This document shows positions 38,523-61,730 of a DNA stretch of 64,000 nucleotides, piece after piece. The position numbers and the translations under genes were made by a program. How positions within the stretch are numbered: position 1 is the stretch's first letter; every line of letters starts with the position of its first letter. Source of the DNA: Polyangiales bacterium (lineage in GTDB: Bacteria > Myxococcota_A > Polyangia > Polyangiales > Ga0077539); NCBI GenBank assembly GCA_044229975.1, contig JBGARZ010000013.1, positions 204,781 through 268,780 on the forward strand, read 5' to 3'. The notes under the pieces are model-generated. The model was not told the origin of the DNA. It did not search any database and saw only the letters and a program-made list of their open reading frames with translations.

Positions 38523-39641
38523 ATGAACGCAGCACTCGCCATCGTCACCACCCTGACCACGTCTCTCTGCGCGTCGCTCGACCGCCGCGCCCTCGCCCTC
38601 GCCCTCACGCGCCTCAAGCACGTCGTCGACCGCCGCGCCTCGCTGCCCGCGCTGGAGGCGGTGCTCCTCGCGGGCACCGGCGACGCCCTCCACCTCACCG
38701 CCACGGACGGCAGCGTCTTCGTGCGGGTCGTTGTGCCCGCGACGGTGACCTCGTCCTGGGCGTCGCTCCTGGTGCCCCTGCACCGCATCCTGGCGGTCGC
38801 CAAGGGGCCCGCCGGCCTGCTCCAGCTCGCCGGGGACCAGATCACCGCCAGGGGCGCCACGCACCGCCTCTCGGCCCTCCCCACGACGACCTTCCCGGCG
38901 GTGCCGCCGCCGGGCGGAGCGGTGCTCTTCACCCTCATGCGTCCGACGCTGGCGCGGGTGCTCCGGCAGGCCAGCTACGCGATGAGCTGCGACGACACCC
39001 GGCCGCACCTGGCGTCGATGCTCATCGAGCGTCGCCGCGGGGAGCTGCTGTTCGTGGCGACCGACGGCCACCGGCTCGCGCGGGTGAGCGTGCCCGACGA
39101 CGGCGCCGAGTTCGCGGTGCTCGTCGGGCGCCGCACGGTCGAGTCCGTCGAGCGCATGCTGGCGGTGGACGGCGGGCTCGTCCGCCTCCGGCGCGAGAGC
39201 GACCGCGTGTGGTTCACCTCGGGCGACGAATGGGTCTCCGGGCCCGTCGTCGACGCGGTGTTCCCCAGCTACGAGCAGGTCATCCCGGCGCGCGCGGGAG
39301 GGAACCTCACGATGACCACGACGGAACTCGCCGCCGCGATCCGCGCGGTGGCAGCGAAGGGGACGCCGACCGTGCGGCTGCGGCTCGACGGCGCCGCGTC
39401 GTCGGTCACGCTCTCCGTCGACGACGGCGAGGGCAACGCCGCCGAGGCGGCCGTCGCCGCGACCTTCGAGGGCGCCGTACCCGAGGCCATCGGCATCAAC
39501 GGGCAGTACCTGCGGGAGATGGTCACGGCCCTCGCGGACGAGGGCGCGACGGTCACGATGCAGGTGACCGGCGAGCTCGACCCCGTGCGGGTGGACGGCA
39601 CGCACGGCACGACGGCTGTGGCGATGCCGCTACGGGTGTAG
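38523..39641 (+). CDS. dnaN: DNA polymerase III beta sliding clamp homologue (element-encoded)
   Basis: RASLPALEAVLL, LTATD, YAMSCDDTRPHL, VATDGHRLA, FPSYEQVIP, IGINGQYL, C-terminal MPLRV. Confidence 0.9.
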   Translation: MNAALAIVTTLTTSLCASLDRRALALALTRLKHVVDRRASLPALEAVLLAGTGDALHLTATDGSVFVRVVVPATVTSSWASLLVPLHRILAVAKGPAGLLQLAGDQITARGATHRLSALPTTTFPAVPPPGGAVLFTLMRPTLARVLRQASYAMSCDDTRPHLASMLIERRRGELLFVATDGHRLARVSVPDDGAEFAVLVGRRTVESVERMLAVDGGLVRLRRESDRVWFTSGDEWVSGPVVDAVFPSYEQVIPARAGGNLTMTTTELAAAIRAVAAKGTPTVRLRLDGAASSVTLSVDDGEGNAAEAAVAATFEGAVPEAIGINGQYLREMVTALADEGATVTMQVTGELDPVRVDGTHGTTAVAMPLRV

Positions 39642-43372: not shown

Positions 43373-44983
43373 CTATCGGTGTCGAAGGAACGACTTATGA
43401 ACCCTCAGAGTCACCCTCCCATCGGGTAGCACGTGAAGTCGTGCGCCGAGCTGACCGAACTTCACCACGCTCCACATCGAATAGAAGCGCTTGAGCACGC
43501 CGATTTCCCAGTAGCTCCTCAACCGCCTCCATTCAACGGATTCAACGTCAGGCGGCATGAGTTGCCATCCAAGAGATATGGCGCGATCGCCGACCCCCGC
43601 TTTGACCTCCTGAAGTGGGACACTCCAGTTCGGCGGCAACAGTGGTCCCCCGACAATCCTTAGACACGCTGCGATCAAGCGCATTGCGATCGCGGATGCA
43701 ACCTCTGAGCTTTCAACGAGAACACTCGTCCACCACTCGCGCGACATTAGACGAAAATACAGGAAGTCCTTCCAAAGAGTCACGGTCATCGACTCCGGGA
43801 GCGGCAACTGGATCGACGCGCTGAACGGCAGAGTGTCCGCGCCCTGTGCCAACCAGGCGCTGACACCTTCCTCGGTCGACTCGCGAGCTACTGGTTCTGC
43901 CAGTGGGACTGACTCCCATTCGACGCCATATTCGCGAGGGTCAATTTCAGCCAAAGGCCCAGGCAGCTCGATGTCGAGGCCTTTTGCTCTAGTCGCGAAA
44001 CGCAAGTATGCACTCCAGAAAGCTCTCACCGCATCGCTGCCAGGCTCGGTCCGTCGCGCAAGCCATGCCACGGTAAGCTCGCAAAGGCGCGACAATCTGT
44101 CTCTTGCCGAGAAGATATCACGTGCTGCCAATGCCTGCGCCCAGCCCCGGTATGCAAGAAACCAAGTCTGGTCGCCGTCGTATCCTCCTCCTAGCGCGAG
44201 AAACCCGGGGGCATTGGGCATTGTCACAAGCACGATGTGACAGCCAACAGGCACGCAAGTCCAGCAGGCACGGCCTGCGGTGCGGCACTGCCTCGGCGTC
44301 CTGTATCGACTATCGCTTCTGAGGGAATCAATCCGACCGTCGAGGGCAAGGAAGGCAATGGCGACTCCGCCGCTGACAGGGAATGGAACGATCGTACCCT
44401 TTGGAAGGACAAGCGAGTGCTGCTGAGGAGCGAAGCTCTGTCCTACATACGCCAGTTGAGGCAGCGCTCGCGCTCTACAGACAGCAGCGGAGGTACATGG
44501 CTGCAACCAAGTCCACTTCGCCACCTTGTCCCGCAAGTCCAAGAAATCAAACACCTCGGTCGACTTCACCTCGACCGCAGAAATTGCACCCGCAGCACGG
44601 ACTAGGAAATCGGGCTGCGGAAACACCGCCCCTTTGACGACCTGTCCTTTGCCGTGCTGCCACGAGACGACTCGCACGATATCCTGGCCTCGGCTGCGAC
44701 CCACGACGAACGACAAGACCTCTCCCAACTCCCCCAGTCGGGATCCGCTCATGCCGCGCGCTTTGCTGCGATAGAGACCTTGCACATAACGTTCGGCATC
44801 GGCAAGGAGCCCCTCTGCGTCTAACTCGATCTCGTCAGCAATAATGTCGAGAGCGTGGTCGTCGATAGACACCGTCACCAAACTGCTTGCAGCGGAGAAC
44901 GTACTCAGCCACGGCGACTGATTGGGCGCCTCCACTACACCGAACAATGGCGCTTGCACTTGCTTGATCTGGAATGTGTGCAT
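43373..44983 (-). CDS. Putative PD-(D/E)xK nuclease, compositionally foreign
   Basis: GELGE helix, PDF...AVEVKS; visibly more A/T-rich than flanking genes. Confidence 0.65.
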   Translation of the reverse strand: MHTFQIKQVQAPLFGVVEAPNQSPWLSTFSAASSLVTVSIDDHALDIIADEIELDAEGLLADAERYVQGLYRSKARGMSGSRLGELGEVLSFVVGRSRGQDIVRVVSWQHGKGQVVKGAVFPQPDFLVRAAGAISAVEVKSTEVFDFLDLRDKVAKWTWLQPCTSAAVCRARALPQLAYVGQSFAPQQHSLVLPKGTIVPFPVSGGVAIAFLALDGRIDSLRSDSRYRTPRQCRTAGRACWTCVPVGCHIVLVTMPNAPGFLALGGGYDGDQTWFLAYRGWAQALAARDIFSARDRLSRLCELTVAWLARRTEPGSDAVRAFWSAYLRFATRAKGLDIELPGPLAEIDPREYGVEWESVPLAEPVARESTEEGVSAWLAQGADTLPFSASIQLPLPESMTVTLWKDFLYFRLMSREWWTSVLVESSEVASAIAMRLIAACLRIVGGPLLPPNWSVPLQEVKAGVGDRAISLGWQLMPPDVESVEWRRLRSYWEIGVLKRFYSMWSVVKFGQLGARLHVLPDGRVTLRVHKSFLRHR

Positions 44984-45253: not shown

Positions 45254-46090
45254 TCACAAAACGGGCTCGCCGGTCTTGAACGCCTGGACGCGCAGCGCGA
45301 ACGTCCGCAGCGCCGCCACCAGCCCCGCGTCGTCCACGCGGGCGACTTGGATGACCGAGGCCACCTGGCCTCCATCGTCGACGTCGATGAGGTGATGGTC
45401 GAAGGCGGCGTGGACCTCCGCCTTGGTGACCCGCCTGCCCGTCGCGGTGAGCCTTGTGCCCCGGTGCAGCAGCCAGAGGCCATCCTCGGCATCCCGCCCG
45501 AAGCAGCCGTTGATGCCCCGTTCGGGCCGAACCGTGGTGGTCGGCACGTTGACCTCGACCACCGGGCAGATTCTTGGCACGGCCGGCGAGGGCGCGATCA
45601 GGATCGGCGTCCGGTTGCCCCAGTCCCCTTCGGCGCCAACGCCAACCGCGATCGCGCTCGCACCGCCCCGTGACCAGGTTCTCACCCCCTTGCCGGTGGA
45701 ACCGTGGCCGGGAAAGCTCCAGTGCAGGGAGACCGTCTTCGGCATCTCCTGCTTCAGCGCCGAGCGGAGTTCGCGGAAGGCAGCGCTCACCTCCCGGGCC
45801 TTGAACAACACCCGCATGCCCGCTTCCTCATCGACGCGTTCGGAGGGCGAGCCGTCGTCCACCCCGCCGAACTGTTCGGTGCAGTTCGCGCAGTAGTCGA
45901 GGCCCGACCAGGGGCCGAATCCCTGCTCACCCACACAGCCCTCGCAATGGGCCCCTCCACAGTTATTGCAATGGCTGGCCTCGTCGGCGCTCAGCTGTTC
46001 ACCGCACACCACGCATGGCACAGTGGCATCCCTGTCGGACCCGGCCCGCCCTGTCTTCCGCCTCGCCTTCGTCGATCCACGCTTGCTCAC
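45254..46090 (-). CDS. Hypothetical protein with an N-terminal multi-CxxC zinc finger
   Basis: CVVC, CNNC, HCEGC, CANC; GGAGG RBS; starts 27 bp after the hsdR stop. Confidence 0.7.
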   Translation of the reverse strand: MSKRGSTKARRKTGRAGSDRDATVPCVVCGEQLSADEASHCNNCGGAHCEGCVGEQGFGPWSGLDYCANCTEQFGGVDDGSPSERVDEEAGMRVLFKAREVSAAFRELRSALKQEMPKTVSLHWSFPGHGSTGKGVRTWSRGGASAIAVGVGAEGDWGNRTPILIAPSPAVPRICPVVEVNVPTTTVRPERGINGCFGRDAEDGLWLLHRGTRLTATGRRVTKAEVHAAFDHHLIDVDDGGQVASVIQVARVDDAGLVAALRTFALRVQAFKTGEPVL

Positions 46091-48326
46091 AGACGCCTCC
46101 CCTCCACCGGTGGACCATCACTCCGTGACCGGAGTCTTCACCAACAACAACCACTGGAACACAGCCTCCACCCCACGCGCGTAGGCCTCGTCGGACACGT
46201 CCTCCGGCAGCCCCCCCAGCGCCCGCTTCACGCGCGCCCGCACCTTGTCCCGGAGTTGCTGGTGGAGCTTCCAGTCGAGGGACATCACCTTCGCGACCTC
46301 GCCCGGCAGCGCCTTCGCCACAGCGGTGAGCGCCTCCTTGGGCGCGTCGCCCACGGCCCGCGCGAGGACGTCGCGGAACGCCAACTCATGCTCCGAGAGG
46401 CCCTCGCGCTCGGCGCGCGTCGACTCCGTCTTCAGCGTGCCGAGCAGCTTCACCAACTCCGCGAAGAAGGCCTCGGCGTTGTCGATGCCCTCGTTGTACC
46501 GCGCCACCAGCGCCTCGAAGCGCGCCTGGAGCTCGTCCCGCGTCGGGTTCGCCTGGAGGAGGTTGTTGAGCGCCCGCCGCACGACGGTCTGGAGGCTCAT
46601 CGCGCTGGCGTTGGGCGTCTTCTGCTGCTGCGCGATCGCGTTCGCCAGGCCGTCCACGTCCAGGCGGCGCAGGTCGAGCGGCGCGCGTTCGTAACCCGGC
46701 GACCAGCCCTCGGTCACGCGGTGGACGACCACCGACTCGGCCAACATCGCCCGCACGCGGTCGACGTACTCGCTCACGTCGGGGCGGTCGATGGTGGCCC
46801 GGATGTAGCCCGCCACGTCTGTCAGGAACCCGTGCCGGAGCGCGAAGGGCTTCACCACGTCGTCGAGCACCATCGCCGAGAAGATCCGGTCGACGAGGTT
46901 CACCTGGGCCAGGAAGTTCCGCCGCCGATCGTCCGGGTGGATCAGCGCCTCCTTGGCTGCGTTGCGCAGCGCGAGCCGGTCGGCGAGCGAGACGTTCGGC
47001 GGCTCGCGTGGGTCGACGCCCGCGTCGCGCACCATGGTCTCGGCCGCGTCGATGGACCGCGCGAGCGCCGCGATCAGCGCCTTACGGGGTTGCACCGGGG
47101 TCGCGCCCGCCGGGGCGCCGGGCCGGTTGGCGTAGATCGACAGCGCGCTCCGCAGGTCATGGAACACCCCCGCGTAGTCGACGATCATCCCGCACGCCTT
47201 GCCCGCGTCGACGCGGTTGGCGCGCGCGATGGTCTGCATGAGCGTGTGGTTGCGCATCGGCTTGTCGAGGTAGATGACGTCGCAGCTCGGCACGTCGAAG
47301 CCCGTCATCCACATGCCGCAGACGAACACGATCCGCAGCGGGTGTTTCGGGTCCTTGAAGCAGGCGTCCAGGGCCGGCGGCTCGTTGATCCGCTTGCGGA
47401 TGGGCACGATGTCCAGGGGGAAGCCCTGGAGGTTCGTGGTCGTGACCTTGTGGTTCTTGAAGTCGTCGACCTCGCCCTGCGACTCCGAGATCACCGGCGC
47501 CATCTCGGTCGCGCGCATCCAGGCGATGAGCTCGGCCAGGTCGTCCCGGCGCGTGGACCCCTCGGGCAGCGCCGCGTGCTCGGCCTCCAGCGCCACGAGC
47601 CGGGCGTCCCAGTGGCGCTTCACTCGCACCGACATTTCGACGGCGGTGAAGCGGTCGATCGAGACCACCATCGCCTTGCCGCGCGAGGTGCGCGACGTGT
47701 AGTGCTCGACCAGATCGCGGGCGACCTCGTCGAGCCGCGCGTCGTCCGTGATGAGGCTGTAGAGCTTCGCAAGCTCGCGCCGCAGCACCCGCGCCTCGTC
47801 GGGGTCGAGCGTCGCAGCCTCCAGCATCTTGTAGACGCGCTCGCCCAGCTCGGCGTCGGCGAGCTCGATGCGGGGCAGGCGGTTCTCGTAGTAGAGCGGA
47901 ACCGTGGCCTCGTCGGCGATCGCCTCCTCGAAGGGGTAGATCGAGAGGTAGTCGCCGAACTTGACCTTCGTCTCCCCGTCGGCGGACTTCGACGGCCCGT
48001 GAGCCCTGTCCACGTCGACCAGCGGCGTGCCCGTGAAGGCGAGGTAGCGCGCGTTGGGGAGGGCGTCGCGCATGTTGCTCGCGAAGGTGTCGTACTGCGA
48101 GCGGTGCGCCTCATCGGCCATCACGACCACGTCGTCGCGGGTCGAGAGCGTGGGGTAGGTGGTGCCCTTCACCTCGGTCGAGAACTTCTGGATGAGCGTA
48201 AACACGTAGCGCTGGTCACCTCGGAGCAGCTCGCGCAGGTGGTCGCGCCCCTGGGCCTGCACGAGCACCTTACGCCCCTGCTTCGCGTCGGGCGCCCGCA
48301 CGGCCCCGGCCGACACGAAAGTCTTA

Positions 48327-49661
48327 GGGCGTCGCAGTTTTCTCGTCGGGGTGCTGGTGCGTTCAGTGCGCTCCGTCGCCCCGCACGGCCTTCGGCGCGC
48401 AGAGGATCTCCACGAACCACGCTTCCAAGCCCGCGAGACGCTGGACCTGCGCCTCGACTTTCGCCATCGCCGCACGCGTGAGCGAGATCCCCTTGGCGTA
48501 CGTCGTGGTGACCAGTTGCACGACGGGCGCGACCCCTTTCCAGGTCATGGTCTGAGCGAAGTTCACGACCGTCTCCACGGTGTCCAAGATGCTCCCATTC
48601 CAGTGCTGTTCGAGGACGCCCCAGCAGCGCTCCACGGGGTTGTACTTGCTGTGGTACGGCGGGTAGTAGGCGAGGCGTACGTTGATCCGATGGGCCTGCG
48701 CAAAGGCCACGATCCGCGACAGAAACTGTGTGCGACGGCTCTGGTTTTCGGGCCCGTTGTCCTGAAGCAAAAGGAGCGTATCGACCTCCGGAAAGCGCGC
48801 CCGGTGAGCGCACCACCACGCCTCGATCCGATCGACGATGAAGTCCGCCGTGACGGGCCCCGTCGCCAGAGACACCGTCAGCTCGTTGTGGGCTGTGAGC
48901 AGGATGCCGTACGGCGTCACCTTCGCCTCGGCCCCGTGGTCGTGATCGAGCGCAAACACCAGCACGCGACTGACGCCGTACCGAGAGAACTCCCCCACCT
49001 TGATGACGGCCTTGGCGTCCATCGACAGTTCCAGCACGTTGGGCGAACGCGCGGCCGTCGCCCGCTCACGACTCATCTGTTCGAAGATGGCGTCCGTCGC
49101 GGCGACCTTTTTTTCGGCTTGGTCTTGGCCACGGCGCGCAGCCCATATCCCAGGTCGTTGAGCTTGACGCGGATCGTCTCCTCACACGGCAACTCCTCGT
49201 CCGTGTACCCCTTCTGCGCGATGAGTTGCCGACGGACTTCGGCCGACGTGATGCGTGTGTAGAGCCGCTGCGTTTGAAAGCGCGGATCGGTCTGACTCTG
49301 ACCATCGACGAGGTCGCGCAGATCCCGCATCAGGTTCGGCAGTCGCGATTGCGCCGTCGGACGTCCGCCGCCGGAGCGACCGTCGAGGCACTCGATCCCG
49401 GAGCGCAGCTCGTTCTTGCCTTTGCGCAACGTCCGCTCGTCCCAGTCGAGCGCGCGAACGGCTCGGTTCATCACGCCGTCGAACAGGTCGCGCACCGTCC
49501 GCGCCATGAACCGCCGACGTTCGCTGCCCTTCAAGGCGGCGGCCGTCTCCTTCAACACCTTCGTCACGTTGGTCGCGAGTTGCATGCCCGACTGCCTGGG
49601 AGCTCTGGCGAGCGCTGGACACCCTACGCCCGTTCAGCCCGAGCACTTTGCTGCGGCGCCC
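48327..49661 (-). mobile_element. ISAzo13-family insertion sequence, 1335 bp
   Basis: Terminal inverted repeats GGGCG(T/C)CGCAG; TTA duplicated at 48324-48326 and 49662-49664. Confidence 0.92.
48363..49585 (-). CDS. ISAzo13-family DDE transposase in two ORFs joined by a -1 frameshift
   Basis: SQTDPRF, SMDAKA, DNGPEN, YYPPYHSKYNPVERCW; A7 run at 49108-49114 gives KPKK-VAATDAIF after -1 slip. Confidence 0.9.
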
Positions 49662-50709
49662 TTATAGATCTGGTCGTCGAGGTCGTCGCGATCGGTGATC
49701 ACCACGAAGGTCCAGTTGCCCGGCACCTTCCGCAGCGCCTTCTGCGAGAAGAACACCATCGAGTAGCTCTTGCCCGAGCCCTGCGTGTGCCAGAAGACGC
49801 CGAGGGGCGTACCCTTGGACGGCGCCCCCACTCGGCGCGACGGGGCTTGGGTCTTCGATCGGCGTAGCGCCTCGACGGCGTTGTTCACGCCGAGGAACTG
49901 GTGGTTCTGCGCGACGATCTTCGCGAGGCCGCCGGGCACCTCCACGAAGAGCGTGAAGTTCTCGATCAGGTCGAGCATCCGCGCCGGGTCGCAGACGGCG
50001 CGCAGGAGGGTCGCCTGCCCGGGTGCCGGTGGCTCATCCTCGCGGGCGACGCGCTTCCAGGGCTTGAAGTGCTCCCAGCCGCTGGTGAGCGTTCCCAGGC
50101 GCGCATCGCTCCCCTGCGCGAACATCACGAGCGCGTTGAAGAGGAAGAGGCGCGGGATGGTCACGCGGTAGTCGGTGAAGTTCTCGTCGAAGGCCGCGCG
50201 CAGCGGGACGTCGGGAGACTTGAGCTCTACGAAGAGCAGCGGCAGACCGTTGACGAAGCCCACGAGGTCCGCCCGGCGGGTGTACACGTCGCCCCGCAGC
50301 TCGAACTCGCGCACGGCCACGTAGCTGTTGCGCGCAGGCGTGTCCCAGTCGATCACGCGCACCCGCACCGTTTCGGTGCCGCTGTCGTCGGTCTTCACCT
50401 CCACCGGCACGCCGTCGCGCAGGAGCGCGTAGAGTTCCTGGTTGGCGCGTTCGAGCGAGAGTGCGCTGCGGTCGCGCAGGAGCTCGTTGAGCGCGGCCTC
50501 ACGCGCCCCTGCGGGGACCGTGGGGTTCAGCACCTCGACCGCCTCGCGCAGTCGTCGCGGGAGCACGTGCTCGGTGTTGCTGCCCCGGCCGTAGGTCGAC
50601 ACCGCCCCACCGAAGGTCTCCTTGAAGCCGTTGTCGACGGTCCAGTGGAGCGCTTCGAGCTGCCCTTGGAAGACTGTGGCGACCGCCTGCTCCTTAAGGT
50701 TCGCGGAGG

Positions 50710-51945
50710 TCATGCGAGTTCCTTCTTGCGACGCCCGTGACGCGGCGAGTTGGCGGATGGCAAGTCGGGTGGTGTGTCGTCAACGGCCTCAGGGGGCGGC
50801 AGCGGCAACCGCGAGACGTCAACCTCGCCCGATAGCAACTTGGGAAGGAGAAACCCGCGTAGCTTTCGGAGGGTCGCATTGCGAGTCCCAAGGGACTGCA
50901 ATAGGGCGATGCAGGGTTCCAAGATCTCGTTGAGTGCGAGACGCTCGCTCTCGGTGCCGAGCGGAACTGCATACGTTGCCATGTCTTCCCACCGCGCACG
51001 CGGCATCTTCGACCCATTCGCTTTATTGCTGATTTCGGCAACGAAGTCATCGCTCGACGCGCACATCAACACGGCCAAGCGATCTAGCGCGCTGCGCGCG
51101 CGCATTACAATCGCGTCCGCAGAGGTTACGCCATCGAAAGCTACCGGGCCGACTTTGTGAAAGTAGGGCCGGATCTTCCCAAACAGGAGATCGCCAGCTT
51201 CGAACGGAATCTTCGAACTCACCACGTCCCGCGTGTATCCATGATCGGAGAGGTCGAACGATCGCCGGGGAATGTGTTCCAACCCGATATAGCGCGTATC
51301 GCTGTCGATTTCGGCAGGACTGACCTGCATCCGCACAAGATGCACGAGATCACCCAAAGGAGCCGTGACACGTCTTGCGTCGCGGGCCCATCGCGACCAA
51401 TAGAGACGTGCCACATCTTCAGACATATGAACGCGGCGAAGATTGTTCTCAATGAGGCGCGAGATCCCATCGAGGAAGCCTGCGACGCGCCGCTGTGTTG
51501 GGAGATCTGGCACTCTGAGCGGAACCCGACGGAGTTCGCTCTGTTTGATGCCAGCCACCGTTGTGCCGGTAGCGCGTTTGCGTAGTTCGCCCTGAACCTG
51601 CGGACCCTGGAGCAGGTGATAGAGATATGAGGGATCGATTACGGAGGACTTCGCTCGAAGCAGGATCACGCGTTGGGCAAGCGCCACCCTCGGATCGTCG
51701 ACGCGAGCTACCTGTCCCAGTGGCGCTTCGGTCGTGATGAGAACGTCTCGTTCGCGCGGAAGTCCACGACGCATCCACGTGTCGTAGTCATCTTCTGCAA
51801 TGTACTCATTTTCCGCCTGAAGAACGAAGCCGTCTTTGATGACTTTGGCTGTCACGAGCAGCACGCCGGCATTCGACTTCTCGGGCGTCTTGCCTCGATA
51901 GTCAATCAGCACTTCAACAGCCTCTTCGAGTTCAACCGTCCGCAT
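50710..51945 (-). CDS. hsdS: Type I R-M specificity subunit S
   Basis: DYRGKTP, VPDLPTQRRVA..L, GDLLFGKIRPYF, LRKLRGFLLPKLLSGEV; two-TRD layout. Confidence 0.93.
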   Translation of the reverse strand: MRTVELEEAVEVLIDYRGKTPEKSNAGVLLVTAKVIKDGFVLQAENEYIAEDDYDTWMRRGLPRERDVLITTEAPLGQVARVDDPRVALAQRVILLRAKSSVIDPSYLYHLLQGPQVQGELRKRATGTTVAGIKQSELRRVPLRVPDLPTQRRVAGFLDGISRLIENNLRRVHMSEDVARLYWSRWARDARRVTAPLGDLVHLVRMQVSPAEIDSDTRYIGLEHIPRRSFDLSDHGYTRDVVSSKIPFEAGDLLFGKIRPYFHKVGPVAFDGVTSADAIVMRARSALDRLAVLMCASSDDFVAEISNKANGSKMPRARWEDMATYAVPLGTESERLALNEILEPCIALLQSLGTRNATLRKLRGFLLPKLLSGEVDVSRLPLPPPEAVDDTPPDLPSANSPRHGRRKKELA

Positions 51946-53491
51946 GAGTCGGCTCCAGAAGAAGACGCATCGCCTCACTCACGGTCGCTTCCTGTACATG
52001 AGCCTCCGCCGTAAGGGTCTCGAACTCCTCTTGCAACTCCATCAACCGTTCCTCGAAGTCGACCTCGTCGGCGTCGGTCTTCGCGCCTACGCCCACGTAG
52101 CGGCCAGGATTGAGGCTCCAGCGGTTCTCCTCAATGACCTTGCGCGAGACCTTCTTGCAGAGTCCTTCCACGTCGCTGTACGCCGTGCCTATACGCTCCC
52201 TTGTCAACGCCAACCCGCCATGCCGGTTCTCGACCCCCTTACCTCTCCACAACCTCACAATGTTCGCCAGAAACTCCACTTGCGCGGGGGTAATGTTTCG
52301 ATGCGCTCGGTCCACCTGTTCGAAGACCTCACGGGCGTCAATGAATAGCACTTCGTCGGCGCGTGGCCCCTTTGCTTTTGCCCGATCGAAGAACCATAGC
52401 GTTACCGGCAGCGTGACCGTATAAAAGAGGTTGGTCGAGAGCGAGACGATCACGTCCACGGCGCCGCTCTTCACGAGATCGCGACGCACTTCGAGGTCGC
52501 GACCACCCGCGTCGCTGGCGCTGTTGGCCATGACAAAGCCTGCGCGACCGCCTGGGTTGAGGGCACTATAGAAGCGCTGGATCCACAGGTAGTTGGCCTT
52601 ATCGCCCGATGTCATGCCCCAGGGGTAGTGGACGCGGTCGTCCTTCAAGCGCGCCTTATCGACGCCCTTGAGGTTGAAGGGCGGGTTTGACATCACGAAG
52701 TCGAAGCCCTCCTTCACGTCCTTCTCAACCGGGAACTCGTAGAGCGAGGAGACTACCTGGCGGATGGACCCCTGAAGCCCGTGAATGGCGAGGTTCATTC
52801 GGCAGAGCTGGATGGTCTGGGCCATCTTCTCCTGGCCGAACACGCTGAGCCCCTTGCCCTTGTGTTCAGCCACGAAGCGCGCGCTCTGCACAAACATCCC
52901 GCCTGAGCCGCACGCGGGGTCGAAGATGCGCCCCTCAAAGGGTTCGAGGATCTCGACGATGAGCCGCACCACTGAGAACGGTGTGAAGTACTCGCCGCCC
53001 TTCTCCAGGGTGTTCGGCGCGAGGGCGCCCAGGAAGTACTCGTAGACCCGGCCGTAGACGTCCCCCTCGGGCGACTCTTCGAGCACGTTGAAAGCCTTGA
53101 GCAGGTCGCGCAGGATCTTCTTGTCGATCTTCGCGTAGTCCTTCGGGAGCACGCCCTTGAGGGCGTCGTTGTCTTCCTCGATGGCGCGCATCGCGTCGTT
53201 GAGGACCTTCCCCAGCTCGGCGCCGTCGGGGAGGTCCAGGAGCGCGCCCCAACGGTGCTCGGGGCGGAGGTACACGGCCCCTTCGGCGCGGTAGTCCTCG
53301 GGCTCGGGGGCGCCACGCCGACGACCCGCCTTGAGCTTCGCGTGGGCCTTCGCGAACCCCTCGTCGGCGTACTTCAAGAACAACAGCGCGAGCACCGGGA
53401 GCTGGTACTCCGTCGGCTTGAGCGCGGTGCCGGCCCATAGGGCGTTGGCGGCCTTCCAGAGCGTCGACTCGAAATCCTTGGGCAGGGGCAT
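51932..53491 (-). CDS. hsdM: Type I R-M methyltransferase subunit M (m6A)
   Basis: LWKAANAL, GEYFTP, FDPACGSGG, NPPF, SLNPGRYVG. Confidence 0.96.
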   Translation of the reverse strand: MPLPKDFESTLWKAANALWAGTALKPTEYQLPVLALLFLKYADEGFAKAHAKLKAGRRRGAPEPEDYRAEGAVYLRPEHRWGALLDLPDGAELGKVLNDAMRAIEEDNDALKGVLPKDYAKIDKKILRDLLKAFNVLEESPEGDVYGRVYEYFLGALAPNTLEKGGEYFTPFSVVRLIVEILEPFEGRIFDPACGSGGMFVQSARFVAEHKGKGLSVFGQEKMAQTIQLCRMNLAIHGLQGSIRQVVSSLYEFPVEKDVKEGFDFVMSNPPFNLKGVDKARLKDDRVHYPWGMTSGDKANYLWIQRFYSALNPGGRAGFVMANSASDAGGRDLEVRRDLVKSGAVDVIVSLSTNLFYTVTLPVTLWFFDRAKAKGPRADEVLFIDAREVFEQVDRAHRNITPAQVEFLANIVRLWRGKGVENRHGGLALTRERIGTAYSDVEGLCKKVSRKVIEENRWSLNPGRYVGVGAKTDADEVDFEERLMELQEEFETLTAEAHVQEATVSEAMRLLLEPTHADG

Positions 53492-53495
53492 GGGC

Positions 53496-56282
53496 TCAGT
53501 TCTCGGAGGAGCGGTGCGGGCAGAAGGAGCGGAAGTCGCAGTGGGTGCACTGGACGCCGGGGGTCGCGTCGAAGCGCCCGTCGCGCAGGTCGCTGGCGGC
53601 GGAGTTCAGTGCCTGGAGTGACCCCGCGACGGCCGCGTCGCCCAGATCAACCGGGTGGCGCGCGGTGCCCTTGGCGGCGGTGAGGTCGTGCAGGTACGCG
53701 GCGCGGACGGTGAGCCCCTCACGGCGCGCGGCTGCCGCGTAGACCTGGAGCTGCGCAGCCGCTTCGTCGTCCGCCTGCACGGGGCGGGTCTTGTAGTCGA
53801 GGATCGCGAGCTGGCCGACAACCCCACCCTCGCGATCGAGGATCACGTCAGCGCGCCCCTCGACGTCGGCGGACTCCAGGTGGAGAGCGAGCGGGCGCTC
53901 GACGGCCCAGTGGCGCGCGAGGTCATCGCGCCAGTCGGTGAAGCAGGTCTTCACCACCCGCCGTGCGCGTCGTTCGAGGGCGTCGTAGGCCGCCTGGTCG
54001 GCGTGCGGCAGGTAGAACTCCTCCGCGAGCAGGGCGTCGACCGCTTCAGGCACCGGGTCGGCCCCGCTGGCGCGCACGAGTTCCACCAGACGCCGCAGGA
54101 GGTGGTGCACCGCGCGCCCGTAGCCCGCCTCGCGTACCACCGGCGAGGCGAAGCCCAGCCGCGACGCGAGCCAGTAGCGGTGCGGGCAGGCGACGTAGGC
54201 AGCAAGCGCGCTGTAGGAGAGCGACGGCCGCTCGTCGGCCGCCTGCGGTGTGTGCGGGGCGGCGTCGGGCAGCGGCAGCGGATCATCGCTCACGGTGATC
54301 GAGCCCGGCAGCAAGCCCTGGAGGAGCGGCGAGGCCTTGACCTTGTCCCCGTCCTCGTCGCGCTGGTGAAGCGAGAGGTACAGGTGGTCCCGCGCGCGGG
54401 TGATCGCGACATAGAACAGCCGCCGCTCGTCGTCGTCGGAGCCCTCGTACCGCTCGGCCGGGAAGCGATCGCGCGGGAGGAGCCACGTCCCTCTCCGCCC
54501 GGTCATCTTCGAGGGGAAGACGTTGAGGTTGAGGCACGGCACGAACACCACCGGCCACTGGAGCCCCTTGGCGCCGTGCACGGTGCTAACGGTCACCGCC
54601 GGAGCGGCCGCGTCGAGGTCGCCGGCGAAGTCCTCGTAGGCGGACTGCGCGTAGAACGAGAGGTAGTCGCTGAGGGCGCGCAGGAAGGCCGGGCCCCCGG
54701 CGTGTCCCGCACCGAAGGAGACCACGCCGTCGGTGGCCTGCGTCCACGCGCGGCGCGTGACGGACTCGAAGTCGGCCAGGATCTGGCTGAAGCGGGCGAG
54801 CACACCGAGCCGGTCGGTGGCTTCACCGCCCGCCCAGGTCGACGCACCGAGCGAGGCGAGCAGGCGGTAGAAGTGCCCCACGAGGTCGGCGGCCCCCTCG
54901 TGGGGGAGCCGCGTGCGGAGGCTCAGCAGGTCGGCGCGCAGCCGCTGGCTCTCCTCCGCCGAGCGCCCGAAGGCGGACGCGAGCCGCCCGAGGAGTTCGT
55001 CGAGGGCGATGGACACCTCGCGGCGGGCGCGCGCCCGGTAGAAGGTGTCGCGGCCACAGAGCCACGCGAAGAGGTCCCCCAGCACCTCGGCCTCCGGCTG
55101 GAGGAACAGGCCCTCTCGCCCGGAGCAGCGCCACGGGATCGACGCCTCCGTGAGGGCGGCCAGGAAGGGGGCGGCGTCGTTCTTCGTCGAGCGGAGGAGG
55201 ATCGCCACGTCCGCCGGACTCGCGCCGCGATCGAGCAGCGCGCGGATCGCCTTGGCCACGCGGGCCGCCTCGTGCGCCGGGTCGCGCGCGCCCGAGAGGT
55301 GCACCGCGTGGGGGCCGTCGCCCCGCGCAGCGGTGATGACCTTGGGCAGTCGCCCGCCGATGGTCTCGGCGAAGCGACCCGCGAGGGCGACGATGGGCGC
55401 CACCGAGCGGCGGTTGACGCCGAGGGTCTCGCGCACGGCGCCCGTCTCCTGCTGGAACGTCTGGAGGTAGGCCACCGACGACCCGCGCCACTGGTAGATG
55501 GCCTGGTCGTCGTCGCCCACCACGCAGAGCGAGACGGGGCCGCTGCCGAGCCGTCGGATGAGGCGCGCCTGGGCGGGGTTGATGTCCTGGAACTCGTCGA
55601 CCACCAGGTGGCGTAGCTGCGCGTGCACGGCGGCGAGCACCGGGTCGCGCCCGAGCTCGCGGAGGGCCAGCGCGACGCACTGGGCGTGGGTGAGCACGTG
55701 GTAGCGGTCGAGCAGCGCCAGGTACCGCTCGTAGATCTCGCGGAACGTGCCCGGCGGGAGGTCTTCTAGTGAGAGGCCCTCGTTCTCCACCACGTCGATG
55801 CTGCGCAGGAAGGAGCGCACGGCCTGGACCCTGAGCTTCTGGCCGAGCGCGTCGAGTCCGAGCGCGTCGTACTCCCGGAGCAGGAGGCCGATCACGCGGT
55901 GGGCGTCGTACAGGTCGAAGGTCGCGAAGCGCGGCGCGTGGTCTTGCAGGAAGCGCATGCACCAGGCGTGGATGGTGCCGACGAACATGGGCGCGAGGCG
56001 TTCGAGTGCGAACCCCGGCATGCGCTCAGCGGCGCGGCGCAGGATGCGGGCGCGCAGCTCGGCGGCGGCGGCGCGGGTGAAGGTGAACGCGAGGATGCCG
56101 ACGGGCGCGACGCCGTCGGAGAGCAGCACCGCGACCCGCTGCGCCACCGTCTCGGTCTTGCCCGAACCCGCGCAGGCGACGACCTGGAGGTGACCTCCCC
56201 GGTGCTCGATGATCGCGCGCTGCTCGGCCGAGTAGGCGACGGTGGGGGTGCCAGGTGTCTGTGGTGTCCCGGCGTCGTCCAT
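53496..56282 (-). CDS. UvrD/Rep SF1A helicase fused to a C-terminal PD-(D/E)xK nuclease with a Cys cluster
   Basis: ACAGSGKT, VDEFQD, GDDDQAIYQWRG, TVHGAKGLQW, ERRLFYVAITRA; ACP...GRAD...ILDYKT...CTHCDFRSFC. Confidence 0.92.
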   Translation of the reverse strand: MDDAGTPQTPGTPTVAYSAEQRAIIEHRGGHLQVVACAGSGKTETVAQRVAVLLSDGVAPVGILAFTFTRAAAAELRARILRRAAERMPGFALERLAPMFVGTIHAWCMRFLQDHAPRFATFDLYDAHRVIGLLLREYDALGLDALGQKLRVQAVRSFLRSIDVVENEGLSLEDLPPGTFREIYERYLALLDRYHVLTHAQCVALALRELGRDPVLAAVHAQLRHLVVDEFQDINPAQARLIRRLGSGPVSLCVVGDDDQAIYQWRGSSVAYLQTFQQETGAVRETLGVNRRSVAPIVALAGRFAETIGGRLPKVITAARGDGPHAVHLSGARDPAHEAARVAKAIRALLDRGASPADVAILLRSTKNDAAPFLAALTEASIPWRCSGREGLFLQPEAEVLGDLFAWLCGRDTFYRARARREVSIALDELLGRLASAFGRSAEESQRLRADLLSLRTRLPHEGAADLVGHFYRLLASLGASTWAGGEATDRLGVLARFSQILADFESVTRRAWTQATDGVVSFGAGHAGGPAFLRALSDYLSFYAQSAYEDFAGDLDAAAPAVTVSTVHGAKGLQWPVVFVPCLNLNVFPSKMTGRRGTWLLPRDRFPAERYEGSDDDERRLFYVAITRARDHLYLSLHQRDEDGDKVKASPLLQGLLPGSITVSDDPLPLPDAAPHTPQAADERPSLSYSALAAYVACPHRYWLASRLGFASPVVREAGYGRAVHHLLRRLVELVRASGADPVPEAVDALLAEEFYLPHADQAAYDALERRARRVVKTCFTDWRDDLARHWAVERPLALHLESADVEGRADVILDREGGVVGQLAILDYKTRPVQADDEAAAQLQVYAAAARREGLTVRAAYLHDLTAAKGTARHPVDLGDAAVAGSLQALNSAASDLRDGRFDATPGVQCTHCDFRSFCPHRSSEN

Positions 56283-56491
56283 CGTCCCCTCCATCCCGTG
56301 CTCCTGCGCGATCGAGCCGGCCTGCGGCGTGCCGAGGATCGCCGCGCGATCATCGACCCGTCAACGACCATCGACGCGAGCGGACCGGGCCCAGCGCACC
56401 CTTCGCCGGTCGGCACCGATCGCTGAGCCACCCGGAGACGATCCCTCTCGATCCTTCCAATTTCCGATCGCTAAGGCCGATACTTTGCGCG

Positions 56492-59400
56492 ATGACATCC
56501 GACCAGGACCTGAAGTTGCGCGGAAAGCATCCGGGCCCGGATGAGGTGCGCGCGGCCGTCACCGGAATACTTGCGGCCGTCGCCGCCACGCGAGAGCTCG
56601 ACCAGGCGAACGAGGCGACGACGAGAGTCGGGTTGGTCGACAAGCTGCTGGACGCGATGGGTTGGCCCTTTGGCGAAATCAAGCGCGAGCAACCGTCTGG
56701 AACGGGCCTTTTCCTGGACTACGAGTTGCGGGTCCGCGGAGAGCCTTGGATGGTCGTTGAGGCGAAGCGTACCGAGAGAACCTTTCGCTTGGCGCGCCCC
56801 ACCGCATCGGGGCGCGCGACGCCGCTGAGAAGCCTCCAGAGCCTCCTCACCTCCGGCGGGCAACCCCTACGCGAGGTTTTGAATCAAGCCGCCGGATACT
56901 GCAACGATCGTGGCATCCCCCTCGCGGCGGTGACAAACGGCACGCAGTGGGTGTTCTTCAGGGGCCTATCCGCCCGACATCGCCAGTGGATGGACGGCGT
57001 TGCGATCGCGTTCGACCGCGCCGATTTAGTCGAGGCATCCGGTGAGTTCTTCGGGTGCCTTTCCAGAAGCTGCGCTGGAACTCCCTATCTCCCCGACCTC
57101 CTCGACCGGGTCACGCATGTGGACCCACCTGCCGCGCATGTTCCCCGCGACCACATCGAACTCCGACGACCGACGATCGACCCCCACACCGCCGCCGTCC
57201 TCGGCTCCGTCTGCGACTACCTGCTCGCCGACATCTACGGGTCCAACCGTCAAGCGATGCTGAAGCAGTGCTACATCGAGCCGGGCGTCAAGGGGGAGTT
57301 CGAGCGCAGCATCGAGCGCCTCCTGCGAGACACCGCCAATCCGATCACGCTGCTCGATAGCCAAAGGGACGATGGCCCCAAGCGAGCGGCCGACGATCGA
57401 AAGGGCGAGGAATCGAATCTGCTCGACGGCGACAGTCGCGACTTTGTCGAGCACGTCACCCTCCTCGACCGAACGACCGAGATTCAAAACCCCGTCGTCG
57501 TCGTCGGTCACGTCGGAGCCGGCAAGACCACCTTCCTGCATCGCTCGCTATCTCACTTCGAGCCGAACAAGGGGGCCAAAGGCAACAACGAGGCCTTCTA
57601 CGCTCTCGTCGACTTGGAGGGCCACGGCGAGGGAGGCGCCGTGGAGGCCAATCAGGAGGAGCAAAAGGTCGCGGAGGACATTCTGCGAGGGCTAAAGTAC
57701 TCCGCGCAGGAGGCCGTGCGCAGCCGTAAGGCAGGCCGCTCCGACGCTGGTGAGACCAACCTCGAACGGCTTCTCGAACGCACCGACCCCTACTCCCTCG
57801 CGACACTCCAAAGCCTCTTCGGCGGGCGTCTGAAGAACGATAGGAAACTGGGGGAGAAGGTGTGGGCGAAGGACCCCGGCGCGTGGGATCGCAAGGAGTA
57901 CGAGATCCTTTCTGAGGCCAAGAAGGATGCTGTCGATCTGCTTGTGCGCTTCGTCAAGCACCTCCGGGAGCACTTCCACCGCGCCGACAAACGAAGGTAC
58001 CCCGTCCTGATCGTACTGGACAACCTGGACCAGGCGACGGACGACTACCAACGCTGTATCTACGGGCTGGCGCGCCAGTTGGCGCGTCGAACCCACGCCA
58101 TCATCGTCGTGTGTCTTCGCGAGGACACGTACAATTCGGGGTTGGGACCCAACGGCTTTCTTGCCTCAAGCAACCTCCAGTTCGTGTTTCACGTGAAGGC
58201 GCCTCCGCTCGACCATGTCGTTCGGCAGCGGGCGAAATTCGGGAAGCAAGCCGTCGAGTCGGGCAAGCTCCCCACGGCCCTCGCGGTCGAGTCCGACGCA
58301 TTGATCGGCGTGTGTGACCTTCTCGGGGACGTGTTCTTGACGCCCAAATCGGAAGCGATCGAGTTGGCGTCATCCGTTTCTGGTCACAACATCCGCGAAG
58401 CCCTCGGGATCGTTCGATCGGTGGTCGCCGGCCGCCCCTCCATCGCCGGTGAGGCCAAGAGCAGTGCCGCATTCGCGCTCGATTGCATTCTCGCCACGCG
58501 CAGCCAAGAGTCCGTCCGGAATCTGCTGGGCCCCGGCAACTGCCTGGACGCGGACCCATGGAACCCTCCATGTCACGCCCTGCGTGTCCGGATGCTGGCA
58601 TACCTATCGTGGTCCTTCGAATCGAACAACGATCGCGTTCTGCACGAGATGACGGACCTGATTCTGGCGCGCTTCTCGTCGTGGGGATACCCGCTCGGGC
58701 TTGTGAAAATGGCCGTGGCCTCTCTGCTCGCGGCCCGGTTGATCCGTCCCCGCACCAAGGCGGATTTCTCCCCACTCCGAGCCCCCTACACGTTGCCTCA
58801 GGGGCTGTCACTCACCGCATCGGGCAGGGTGCACCTCACCCGGCTCGTGAACCTCCCCGTGTACCGGGCGGCCACCGCCCTGAGGGTCAGGTGGTACGAC
58901 AAGGAATTCTTTACGGAGTTCGTGCGTGCCGCCCAGGCCGCTGGCGGGGATGAGGGTCCCAGTGTCGCGGACATCGCCGCGTCGAAGGCCCTCGACATCT
59001 TTGACTCCTACCTTGCCGTCGCGGTCGGACGCGAGGACGGGTACCTAGGTTTGAGCGCAGCCAAGCCGCAGTGGCTTTCGGAAGTGATATCCCGATCGGC
59101 GCAGGTGCTGCCATCCACGGATCTTCTGCAAGCGAAGGCCACGATCGTTCCCCCTCCCCGCCCCTCACGCCGTGCGAAGTCCAAAGACGTCGACAAGCAA
59201 CTCCCGCTCTTCGAGGAGACTGGACAGCCCCCGTCGTCATTAGGGAAGCTCCTGGCAGACGCCTCCTTTGGAGGCGACCCCTGGGTCGTCAGGGTCTTGT
59301 GGGCGCTTGAGTGGGGACGAGAGCGCGGCACACCGGCCATGTTGGAATCTGACATCTGGCGAACGCTCAACGAGCACACTTCGCTGCGATTCGAGCAGGC

Positions 59401-59530
59401 GGACCTCGAACGCGCGCTGCGCTCGCTCAATCGGAACACCACCGATTCTCTGTGGTCCCTCTCGAAGAAGCGCTACCAGATCACCCCTGCGGGCAGCCTC
59501 CTCGTCACGGCTTTGGCGCGGCCCGAGTAG
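56492..59530 (+). CDS. HsdR_N-like restriction-endonuclease domain fused to a P-loop ATPase and a C-terminal winged helix
   Basis: NEATTR...LDY...VVEAKR...QAAGYC...AVTNG.QW; Walker A GHVGAGKTT; Walker B LIVLDNLD; terminal YQITPAG. Confidence 0.8.
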   Translation: MTSDQDLKLRGKHPGPDEVRAAVTGILAAVAATRELDQANEATTRVGLVDKLLDAMGWPFGEIKREQPSGTGLFLDYELRVRGEPWMVVEAKRTERTFRLARPTASGRATPLRSLQSLLTSGGQPLREVLNQAAGYCNDRGIPLAAVTNGTQWVFFRGLSARHRQWMDGVAIAFDRADLVEASGEFFGCLSRSCAGTPYLPDLLDRVTHVDPPAAHVPRDHIELRRPTIDPHTAAVLGSVCDYLLADIYGSNRQAMLKQCYIEPGVKGEFERSIERLLRDTANPITLLDSQRDDGPKRAADDRKGEESNLLDGDSRDFVEHVTLLDRTTEIQNPVVVVGHVGAGKTTFLHRSLSHFEPNKGAKGNNEAFYALVDLEGHGEGGAVEANQEEQKVAEDILRGLKYSAQEAVRSRKAGRSDAGETNLERLLERTDPYSLATLQSLFGGRLKNDRKLGEKVWAKDPGAWDRKEYEILSEAKKDAVDLLVRFVKHLREHFHRADKRRYPVLIVLDNLDQATDDYQRCIYGLARQLARRTHAIIVVCLREDTYNSGLGPNGFLASSNLQFVFHVKAPPLDHVVRQRAKFGKQAVESGKLPTALAVESDALIGVCDLLGDVFLTPKSEAIELASSVSGHNIREALGIVRSVVAGRPSIAGEAKSSAAFALDCILATRSQESVRNLLGPGNCLDADPWNPPCHALRVRMLAYLSWSFESNNDRVLHEMTDLILARFSSWGYPLGLVKMAVASLLAARLIRPRTKADFSPLRAPYTLPQGLSLTASGRVHLTRLVNLPVYRAATALRVRWYDKEFFTEFVRAAQAAGGDEGPSVADIAASKALDIFDSYLAVAVGREDGYLGLSAAKPQWLSEVISRSAQVLPSTDLLQAKATIVPPPRPSRRAKSKDVDKQLPLFEETGQPPSSLGKLLADASFGGDPWVVRVLWALEWGRERGTPAMLESDIWRTLNEHTSLRFEQADLERALRSLNRNTTDSLWSLSKKRYQITPAGSLLVTALARPE

Positions 59531-59636
59531 TGCCGTCGTTCCTGCCTCACTTCACCCCGGGTCGCCGAGCACCTCGACGGGCTCCGTGACCGCTTCGGAG
59601 TGGTCCGACTCTTGACCGCCGTTCGCAGGTCGTGTT

Positions 59637-60122
59637 GTGGTCATCCGCATGAGCGGGGAGAAGATCATCATGGGTGCGTTGGAGATCGTAGGCCGTCCGC
59701 TCACGGAAGTGCTCGATCGCCTTCTGTCGACCGCGAGTCGCAATGAGTTCATCCTCGTGGTGTCGAACAACGCGCGACACCCGATGCGGCGGTCAGAGAC
59801 CTTCAACGACTCGGACCACTGGCCGTTCGACGACGTGCCGCCAGGGGCCACGGCGACCGTTGCCCTTCAGCGCAAGAACTTCTCTTTCGCTGCGAAGTAC
59901 GCGCTCGGGGATTCCGGCCGCGCGGTCATCCTGGCGGGTTCCAGCCCGTTCTTGGGCACCGAGAAGATCGATATCGAGCCCTCCGGCAGCCGCGTCACCT
60001 GCAAAGACGTCTGGGAGAGAATGGACGACGGTCACGACAAGGGAAGCGCTCAGGCGAGGGCCTACATCAAGTCGGGTAAGGCGCCGGGAAGCCGGGCCTG
60101 GGTTTGGGACATCGGCCCTTAG
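59637..60122 (+). CDS. Hypothetical protein
   Basis: ORF co-oriented with and directly after the nuclease-ATPase; no motif recognised. Confidence 0.5.
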   Translation: MVIRMSGEKIIMGALEIVGRPLTEVLDRLLSTASRNEFILVVSNNARHPMRRSETFNDSDHWPFDDVPPGATATVALQRKNFSFAAKYALGDSGRAVILAGSSPFLGTEKIDIEPSGSRVTCKDVWERMDDGHDKGSAQARAYIKSGKAPGSRAWVWDIGP

Positions 60123-60562: not shown

Positions 60563-61387
60563 TCACTTGTCTGACGGGGGGGTCTTCGTCTTGCTGTCGG
60601 AGTGATTAGAGTTCAAGACGTCTCGCGTCGCGTTCTTCTCACGGTCTTTGATGAATGATTTGAGTTTCTCCGCCCGGCCGGGGTGGCGCACCTTGCGGAG
60701 GGCCTTGTCCTTGATCTCGGCCATGCGTTCCGATGAAACCTCAAAACGTTCGGCAACTTCGTCGAGGGTCGGCTCGGATCCTCTCGGAAAGCCAAATCGC
60801 ATCCGCAGAACTTGTTCTTCGCGCGAGGTCAACGTCTTCAGGACCTTCCGCAGTTGCTCCCACTGAACGTCTGCCAGCATCGAATCGAGTGGTGAGAGCG
60901 CCTCCGCCGGAAGGTCGTCCAGCGCCTCGGAGTCATGCAGATTGTCCTGCGGATCCCGGGTCGCTTCGAGGATGGATCGGACCGCTTCCGGTGGCACCTC
61001 CAACTTCTCGGCGATCTCCTCCGGTGTCGGCTCTCGATGAAACTCGTCTCGAAGGTATCCTGCGATGCGCCGGATATCGCGTCCCTGCTTAACCAGATGC
61101 TCCGGAACATGGACGACCCTGGCGCCATTCTTGACGGCCCGTTCGATCTTCCAGCGGATCTGCCGCCCCGCATAGTGCGAGAAGGGAGCACCCTGTTCCG
61201 GCTCGTAGGTGCCACTGGCGTTCCAGAGGCCGATCTCCCCCTCCTGCAACAGGTCCTCCCACGGCAGGCCACGGCCCCGAAAATCCGCAGCAACCTCCAC
61301 CACGAGCGCGCGGTGCTGAGCGAACAGTGCGATCCGCCTTGCTCTGGTCTCGCCGTCCGTCGTCCGATCCGTAGGTCTGTCAGTCAT
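60563..61387 (-). CDS. RpoD-derived sigma70-family factor (regions 2-4, 274 aa) with altered DNA-contact residues
   Basis: RGL..EDLLQEGEIGL, REPTPEEIAEKL, TLTSREEQVLRMRFG, KALRKVRHP; GGAGAGG RBS before MTDRP. Confidence 0.88.
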   Translation of the reverse strand: MTDRPTDRTTDGETRARRIALFAQHRALVVEVAADFRGRGLPWEDLLQEGEIGLWNASGTYEPEQGAPFSHYAGRQIRWKIERAVKNGARVVHVPEHLVKQGRDIRRIAGYLRDEFHREPTPEEIAEKLEVPPEAVRSILEATRDPQDNLHDSEALDDLPAEALSPLDSMLADVQWEQLRKVLKTLTSREEQVLRMRFGFPRGSEPTLDEVAERFEVSSERMAEIKDKALRKVRHPGRAEKLKSFIKDREKNATRDVLNSNHSDSKTKTPPSDK

Positions 61388-61730
61388 TGACCACCTCTCC
61401 TCCGCTGACCAGGAAGCCGGGACCAGGGGTCGTCCCGCGATTGGAGGTACCCTGCCATAGAGGGCTGGTGCGCGGCCAGCCTTCTCGACGACAGCTAGCC
61501 ACGAGCCGTCGGTCATCGCGGTGCCTGTCCACCAGTGGGTGGCGCCGCAGGTCTGACCTCGGGTGAACAGGTGTGGAGTGTCCAGCGACGCAAGCAGATC
61601 GGGTCCCGATGCGTGCTGGGTCTTCAATGCTATTGGGATCGATGAGCTGAGAGAAGCACACTGCTATGGGTCGGGTGCCCGGCGAGCATACGCCGTATTG
61701 CGCCTGTCCGGACCTGCCTACCCTTGGTCC

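Follow-up and report, generated by a model that had tools for sequence, protein, structure and literature searches.

Does a long open reading frame (ORF) lying next to a type I restriction-modification (R-M) operon encode an anti-phage system and, if so, one that already has a name? We address this for a 64,000 nt stretch of a Polyangiales bacterium genome (GCA_044229975.1, contig JBGARZ010000013.1, positions 204,781 to 268,780 of the forward strand), hereafter the window, in which an original prediction made without database searches had pointed to a single-chain nuclease-ATPase as a strong candidate for an undescribed defence system. The gene turned out to be related to DS-14, a validated single-gene anti-phage system. 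The explanation that we favour, with moderate confidence, is a stand-alone DS-14-family anti-phage nuclease in which an ATPase would trigger DNA cutting and a C-terminal tail is predicted to tether the protein to the host beta sliding clamp.

Relationship to DS-14

The gene under study is the following:

56492 to 59530, + strand: DS-14-family nuclease-AAA+ ATPase gene, tailed branch, ATG start, 1012 aa (a single chain of about 1010 aa had been expected)

DS-14 (WP_040091717.1, working id RMOR) is an 816-aa E. coli protein validated as a single-gene anti-phage system in the DefensePredictor study (PMC13092281), of which the passages and table rows covered here are the basis for what follows. 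There it is marked as defensive and replicated and by itself reduces plating of 3 of the 24 E. coli phages in the panel, with -log efficiency of plating of 4.7 for Bas50, 3.7 for Candy and 1.1 for RB69; the authors' annotation from HHpred rows is PD-(D/E)XK (BpuSI_N) plus ORC1-like AAA+ (PMC13092281). Its pBAD flag is 1 in one table and 0 in another (PMC13092281), and according to the covered part of the preprint (bioRxiv 2025.01.08.631726) only DS-44 was expressed with pBAD. In the same portions of the two sources, DS-14 is absent from the journal main text and appears once in the preprint.

A profile of the close family aligned to DS-14 with an hhalign probability of 99.9 (E 4e-35, 662 columns), collinear through the first winged helix. 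With DS-14 as query the window ORF was the only match in its genome (E 2.7e-14), as it was with a profile of 104 tail-less members (E 8e-103). Both proteins are encoded by a single gene and carry an N-terminal BpuSI_N/HsdR_N-type nuclease with intact D and ExK and an ORC1-like AAA+ domain in the same chain, and 28 of 30 chosen family positions are identical between them, the positions having been picked from an alignment that included DS-14. The window protein differs in length (1012 vs about 816 aa), its roughly 150 extra residues being a QLxLF linker and a second winged helix. Because it belongs to the tailed branch and has 1012 aa, it is, judging by sequence, a variant within the DS-14 family and not DS-14 itself. 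DS-6 was rejected as a match, since it is a HipA kinase system.

The original prediction had called the system undescribed and had named a match to an already named system as what would remove that novelty. As the family contains DS-14, the claim of novelty falls. The anti-phage role proposed at the same time gains support, since the relative DS-14 is a validated defence gene, and we regard a defence function of the window protein as likely.

Domain architecture and conserved residues

The chain starts with an HsdR_N-type PD-(D/E)XK nuclease and an ORC/Cdc6-like AAA+ domain with its lid. A winged helix and a helical bundle come next, and a disordered linker then leads to a second winged helix; all parts are on the + strand:

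56537 to 57106, + strand: HsdR_N/BpuSI_N-type PD-(D/E)XK nuclease domain, residues ~16-205 (E41, D76, E90, K92, Q132, Y136), from conserved motifs and a fold match
57179 to 58201, + strand: AAA+ ATPase core, residues ~230-570, with a ~110-residue helical insert; Pfam AAA_16 above cutoff and fold matches
57506 to 57532, + strand: Walker A, within the AAA+ core
58007 to 58030, + strand: Walker B, within the AAA+ core; Arg543 at the sensor-1 position
58202 to 58501, + strand: helical lid, residues ~571-670, with P571, R580 and an N-x-R635 sensor-2-like motif (58388-58405), from model and conservation
58559 to 59101, + strand: first winged helix and helical bundle, residues ~690-870, common to DS-14, from model, fold matches and hhalign
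59198 to 59212, + strand: QLPLF, residues 903-907, candidate beta-clamp-binding motif in the disordered linker, fitting the published consensus
59264 to 59521, + strand: second winged helix, residues ~925-1010, not in DS-14, from model and generic winged-helix matches

An AlphaFold model based on a 46-sequence alignment (mean pLDDT 84, pTM 0.83) shows the AAA+ domain with a large helical insert. The nuclease domain matches the BpuSI N-terminal nuclease 3s1s (Z 10.6, root-mean-square deviation (rmsd) 3.7, 148 aligned), and its motifs are 98-100% conserved; Pfam HSDR_N is weak on the window protein and above cutoff in several relatives. Over residues ~230-680 the ORC/Cdc6, TnsC, Avs3 and RdrA folds tie at Z 11-12, and Foldseek likewise puts ORC/Cdc6 first for the ATPase region; for the NTPase domain, STAND, ORC, TnsC and RdrA folds lie within ~1 Z of each other. 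No superfamily 2 (SF2) DEAD-box translocase was found after the nuclease by Pfam, in the AlphaFold model or by fold comparison. The predicted fusion of an HsdR_N-type nuclease to an ATPase instead of an SF2 motor is thus borne out by motifs, Pfam AAA_16 and fold matches, and the helical and winged-helix regions expected after the ATPase are present in the model.

All the motifs quoted beforehand are in place, both in the nuclease (E41-A-T-T-R45, D76-Y77, E90-A-K92, Q132xxxY136, T148-N-G150) and in the ATPase (GHVGAGKTT 339-347, LIVLDNLD 506-513, CLREDTY 541-547, NIREAL 633-638). By their conservation they are real and not chance matches, because conservation across 284 family proteins reaches 97-100% at the key residues: E41, E66, D76, E90, K92, Q132 and Y136, the glycines and lysine of Walker A, D510, N511, D513, R543, R580 and R635. 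Among these 284 no conserved arginine finger was found. Three traits we take to be STAND-like, namely a Walker B of the DxxD form, Arg at the sensor-1 position and the missing arginine finger; the P...R lid start and N-x-R motif we take to be Cdc6-like. The AlphaFold model has no tetratricopeptide repeat (TPR) or other repeats after the winged helix, and no repeat family of Pfam matches. These features support the idea of an NTPase-gated nuclease with mixed STAND and AAA+ traits and no TPR sensor, in which the gating is read from the architecture. When residues 225-680 were modelled as a homodimer together with ATP and Mg, the prediction scored 0.00, which is evidence neither way.

Several known systems share parts of this design. 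Avs/AVAST and bNACHT STAND proteins likewise combine an N-terminal nuclease effector with a central P-loop switch and a winged helix, at similar fold scores; the window protein differs in its Cdc6-like lid and in having no TPR/WD40 sensor, and no PADLOC Avs or bNACHT model was among the matches of 46 members at E 0.01. The DNA-binding AAA+ proteins ORC/Cdc6, TnsC, MuB and BrxC are the best fold matches (Z 10-12), from which the window protein departs by a Walker B reading DNLD and not DE, by the lack of a conserved arginine finger and by the fused nuclease. With KAP NTPases (PifA, RdrA) and Sll1717 it shares the large helical insert that separates Walker A from Walker B; the fold match to RdrA has Z 11.3. 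DS-14 is narrowly above the Pfam KAP cutoff (23.8 vs 20), as are some relatives, and Atlas neighbours carry KAP in 11-54% of members; the window protein itself has no KAP match, and its Sll1717 score is 32 bits against a cutoff of 75. HsdR of type I R-M systems has the same nuclease domain with QxxxY, but the window protein has AAA+ in place of the SF2 translocase and no conserved HsdM/HsdS partner.

Tail domains and a candidate clamp-binding motif

In a quick, unrooted FastTree of 142 core regions, the window protein falls in a winged-helix-tailed group of 66 rows (support 99). DS-14 belongs to a tail-less group, also of 66 rows (support 97), which has cold-shock- and S1-tailed members beside it. 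Two tailed rows were mislabelled by tail pattern, and the tailed group contains five rows without a tail, at least two of which are truncated by a stop or contig end. Tails in the family are a winged helix, two cold-shock domains or S1, and Pfam confirms the cold-shock and S1 assignments. The best fold match of the second winged helix (Z 7.9, rmsd 2.8, 88 aligned) is to generic winged helices and rests on a low-confidence model; folded without an alignment, the tail gave a poor model (pLDDT 60). A word-index search with the tail alone matched only the window protein, and a HARE-HTH identity was rejected as it had no Pfam support. Three other proteins in related genomes, one of GmrSD type and two unassigned, also terminate in this winged helix (L084:1-1950, L085:881-2788, L086:271-1113); no clamp motif matches in these three unrelated proteins.

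In the part of the source covered (PMC11139829), a clamp-binding motif is defined as Q-phi-x-[L/M]-[F/L] or Q-phi-x-[L/M]-x-[F/L], and QLxLF is its strongest form. QLPLF at residues 903-907 lies between segments with pLDDT <50, in the linker before the second winged helix, which is the least conserved block of the protein (0.2). Among 69 tailed members filtered to <60% identity, a Q-h-x-L-type core is kept in 61, nearly always 20-42 residues before the second winged helix. The strict definition applies to 32/69 linkers (shuffle mean 1.8, maximum 8 in 1000), counts that overstate independence, since the motif had been noticed before testing and the members are related. In controls it occurs in 11/746 core windows, 123/5924 neighbour-protein windows and 3/113 members without the tail winged helix. 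A looser pattern, written after data inspection, is found in 48/69 linkers. Two of 26 loci fetched later are tailed: one repeats a member of the set and does not fit the strict pattern, and the other is a new member (63% to a set member) with two tandem QLSLF.

A clamp-binding-type motif in the tail is, from these alignments, a new feature, missed by the original prediction, and we lean slightly towards QLPLF being a functional clamp-docking site. EndoMS/NucS reportedly provides a precedent for a clamp-activated nuclease. Like EndoMS/NucS and Hda, the window protein would carry a short clamp-binding motif on a nuclease or AAA+ protein, in its case a predicted one; unlike it, those two are repair and replication-control proteins. 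A literature search with coverage missing most subscription journals found no case of a defence nuclease with a clamp motif.

A second beta-clamp gene (dnaN) lies in the window at 38523-39638 (+), ~17 kb from the nuclease gene. It scores above the NCBIfam cutoff, is 28.6% identical to another copy on contig C23 and is near DUF932, sigma-54 activator and XRE genes. No dnaN was found near the gene in the other family loci.

Linkage to defence genes

ORFs near the gene were called by a simple script, which likely missed some, and scanned against PADLOC; a locus was counted if it had a match at E 1e-25, with generic matches excluded (Ser/Thr kinases, sigma-54 activators, ABC ATPases, polA, dnaG/rpoD). 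A defence match was found at 5/18 loci of the close group and 12/47 of the broad group, the latter being the 47 of 107 loci that have 3.5 kb on both sides. In a matched control, defence genes lie within ~3.5 kb in 8/24 loci vs 2/24 stretches ~40 kb away on the same contigs (p=0.07). The linkage is suggestive only; the case for defence rests on DS-14.

The genome of the window also has CBASS-type genes beside a type I methylase (L193, L208; C8 39-55 kb) and an Ssp-type system (L194; C4 267-274 kb).

Proposed mechanism and alternative explanations

In the favoured explanation the protein would rest in an inactive state, which we propose because the family is without a conserved cognate methylase. 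A slow STAND-like site (DNLD in Walker B, sensor-1-position Arg, no conserved arginine finger) would then exchange its nucleotide and allow an oligomer to assemble on DNA through the AAA+ and winged-helix parts, in the manner of ORC/Cdc6 and TnsC. The nuclease domains brought together in this way may cut double-stranded DNA, so that the invader is destroyed or the infection aborted. The trigger would be a nucleic-acid state rather than a protein bound by a repeat sensor, a view that we hold to be somewhat better supported than not because the variable tails are all nucleic-acid-binding folds. In the tailed branch, QLxLF might dock on the clamp and concentrate the enzyme where DNA is being replicated. 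The DefensePredictor passages and table rows covered contain neither mutant nor biochemical data on DS-14 and give no mechanism for this validated system; we therefore infer the gating and the trigger.

A more specific and tentative version holds that the tailed branch rides the clamp, with QLxLF docking on clamp-loaded DNA and replication itself (foreign forks, phage clamp hijack or blockade) as the trigger. The system might then be anti-phage or anti-plasmid, and tails (none, clamp motif plus winged helix, cold-shock, S1) would be swapped to change what is watched. If the clamp motif is functional, it would link an immune nuclease to the hub of the host replisome and offer a way to detect replicating foreign DNA. 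More generally, the analysis assigns DS-14 to a family that spans many phyla and numbers hundreds of clusters, names its conserved residues and shows swappable nucleic-acid-binding tails where Avs systems have repeat sensors.

Several points weigh against the favoured explanation, beginning with the absence of mutant or biochemical data just mentioned. The window protein and DS-14 share little sequence identity (18% across 746 aligned positions and 24% across the N-terminal 352) and sit in different branches, so that function is carried over a long distance. The matched-control difference in defence linkage is not significant, and there is no enrichment vs random stretches of the window's own genome (17/65 vs 4/20, p=0.77). 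As to the clamp, the strict motif is missing in 37/69 tailed members, DS-14 is without it yet protective, the motif counts carry the bias noted above, and the slightly higher model score of residues 903-907 relative to their flanks is also compatible with intramolecular docking.

The first alternative, which we consider unlikely, is an Avs/NLR-like protein sensor whose C-terminal helical part binds a phage protein, upon which the STAND-like domain would oligomerise and the nuclease kill the cell, the tail only tuning localisation. The STAND-like Walker B and sensor-1 Arg would fit such a protein; so would the fold scores of Avs3 (Z 11.3) and Avs5 (Z 10.8), which tie with ORC, and the DefensePredictor table, where bNACHT09 is the nearest known defence homolog of DS-14 (54% coverage; PMC13092281). 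However, there is no repeat sensor: only ~80 helical residues follow the winged helix, while the part of a STAND survey covered here clusters sensors of at least 400 aa (PMC13581612). The lid also retains a Cdc6-like N-x-R motif, and the tails are nucleic-acid-binding folds.

Modification-dependent, type IV-like restriction, in which a winged-helix, cold-shock or S1 tail would read modified bases and the ATPase license cutting, appears quite improbable. Its appeal lies in the fusion of the tail winged helix to a GmrSD protein, in Mrr-like neighbours at loci L044 and L069, in the lack of a conserved methylase partner and in the phages hit by DS-14, yet DS-14 is active without any tail. RB69 we take to be T-even-like with modified cytosine, and Bas50, the strongest DS-14 target, to be a vequintavirus. 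Of the three phages sensitive to DS-14, two are T-even-like, Candy being assigned to Tevenvirinae (bioRxiv 2025.01.08.631726, covered part), but T4 is not among the DS-14 hit rows covered (PMC13092281), and vequintaviruses are described as very sensitive to ordinary R-M (PMC8594841, covered part).

We consider it very improbable that the protein serves the neighbouring HsdM/HsdS as an alternative restriction subunit, or that it forms a two-gene system together with the ORF at 59637-60122. In favour of these options, the gene adjoins an intact hsdM-hsdS pair whose hsdR is split by an insertion sequence (IS), relatives lie near type I R-M genes at loci L015, L020 and L039, and the small ORF is 106 bp downstream on the same strand. 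Against them, locus L020 retains its own hsdR-like gene, R-M genes are absent from most loci, and DS-14 needs only one cloned gene to protect; no homolog of the small ORF was found in the other family loci searched, nor is there a family gene within 1.5 kb of its homolog in genome G002. The two-gene option left by the original prediction is accordingly dropped. As far as gene content can tell, the small ORF is not a partner, and the favoured DS-14-type nuclease has a single-gene organisation with no required partner.

Family distribution and mobility

A word-index search returned 62 proteins, 45 of them at 35-46% identity and all but one of these covering >90% of the query; a full scan yielded 904 cluster representatives with a threshold of E 0.001, and 92 with 1e-30. 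Named close relatives are mostly from Myxococcota and cyanobacteria, and distant ones from many phyla. The distribution is patchy, with the gene in 8/301 genomes of the window's phylum and in 14/401, 3/400 and 9/301 genomes of three other groups, each count including a centre genome picked because the gene is present. Family genes occur in 8/5426 E. coli genomes, reached via a distant Enterobacter member, and in both E. coli regions inspected the gene is inserted into the Rac prophage, on the opposite strand.

Members are also found on plasmids and viral contigs; annotated phage genomes gave no match for the window protein or DS-14. DS-14 relatives at 46-87% identity occur on Klebsiella, Enterobacter, Serratia and Kosakonia plasmid-search records, two of them interrupted by IS903B. 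An Embleya chromosome (loci L025/L026) has two family gene copies ~8 kb apart. Loci L247-L257 and L267 add further members, some with S1-like tails and others tail-less and related to the cold-shock branch; several come from ~2 Mb genomes in the phylum of genome G101.

Searches of PDB sequences gave P-loop-level matches only, and no NCBIfam family was above cutoff for the window protein or 20 relatives. PADLOC v2 (2023) had no real match for the window protein or 46 close members; DS-14 itself has none at E 1e-12, so this lack is no evidence of novelty. The main text and 7 supplements of the STAND survey (PMC13581612) have no HsdR, KAP or sll1717 text, three large supplements that may include the family lying outside this scope. 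No neighbour family is common to more than 5 of 79 loci.

Genomic context

The gene is flanked by two features that we do not count as part of the system:

46118 to 56294, - strand: UvrD-PD-(D/E)XK gene and type I R-M operon, context only, hsdR split by IS
59637 to 60122, + strand: 161-aa gene, function unassigned, homologs elsewhere, absent from other family loci

As had been noted originally, the nuclease gene is divergent from the R-M operon and is followed by an ORF of unassigned function. It lies 197 bp from the minus-strand run UvrD-PD-(D/E)XK, hsdM, hsdS, hsdR. An alternative upstream GTG start at 56255 would give 1091 aa; this extension overlaps the uvrD start and has a lower GC content at third codon positions (0.63 vs 0.79), and alignments of close homologs begin at query residues 9-49, beyond the ATG start. 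No promoter-like site was found for the gene, terminators are at chance level and repeats are uninformative. The downstream ORF has homologs at 80% and 45% identity, which marks it as a real gene.

The type I system of the window probably no longer restricts, because its hsdR (46118-50713, -) is split by an ISAzo13-type transposase region, of which three more identical full-length copies are in the genome; a scan for IS inverted repeats found none. The UvrD helicase with a C-terminal PD-(D/E)XK domain (53496-56294, -, 932 aa) is 5 bp upstream of hsdM.

The whole region is a low-GC stretch at ~43-62 kb (59-73% in 2-kb windows, vs ~70-73% for most of the window). Downstream of hsdR, low-GC genes at 43373-44983 (-) and 45254-46090 (-) have no convincing family match; a PDF...EVKS stretch in the 536-aa low-GC protein resembles a PD-(D/E)XK site. 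An extra sigma-70 family factor (60563-61627, -) stands at the island edge.

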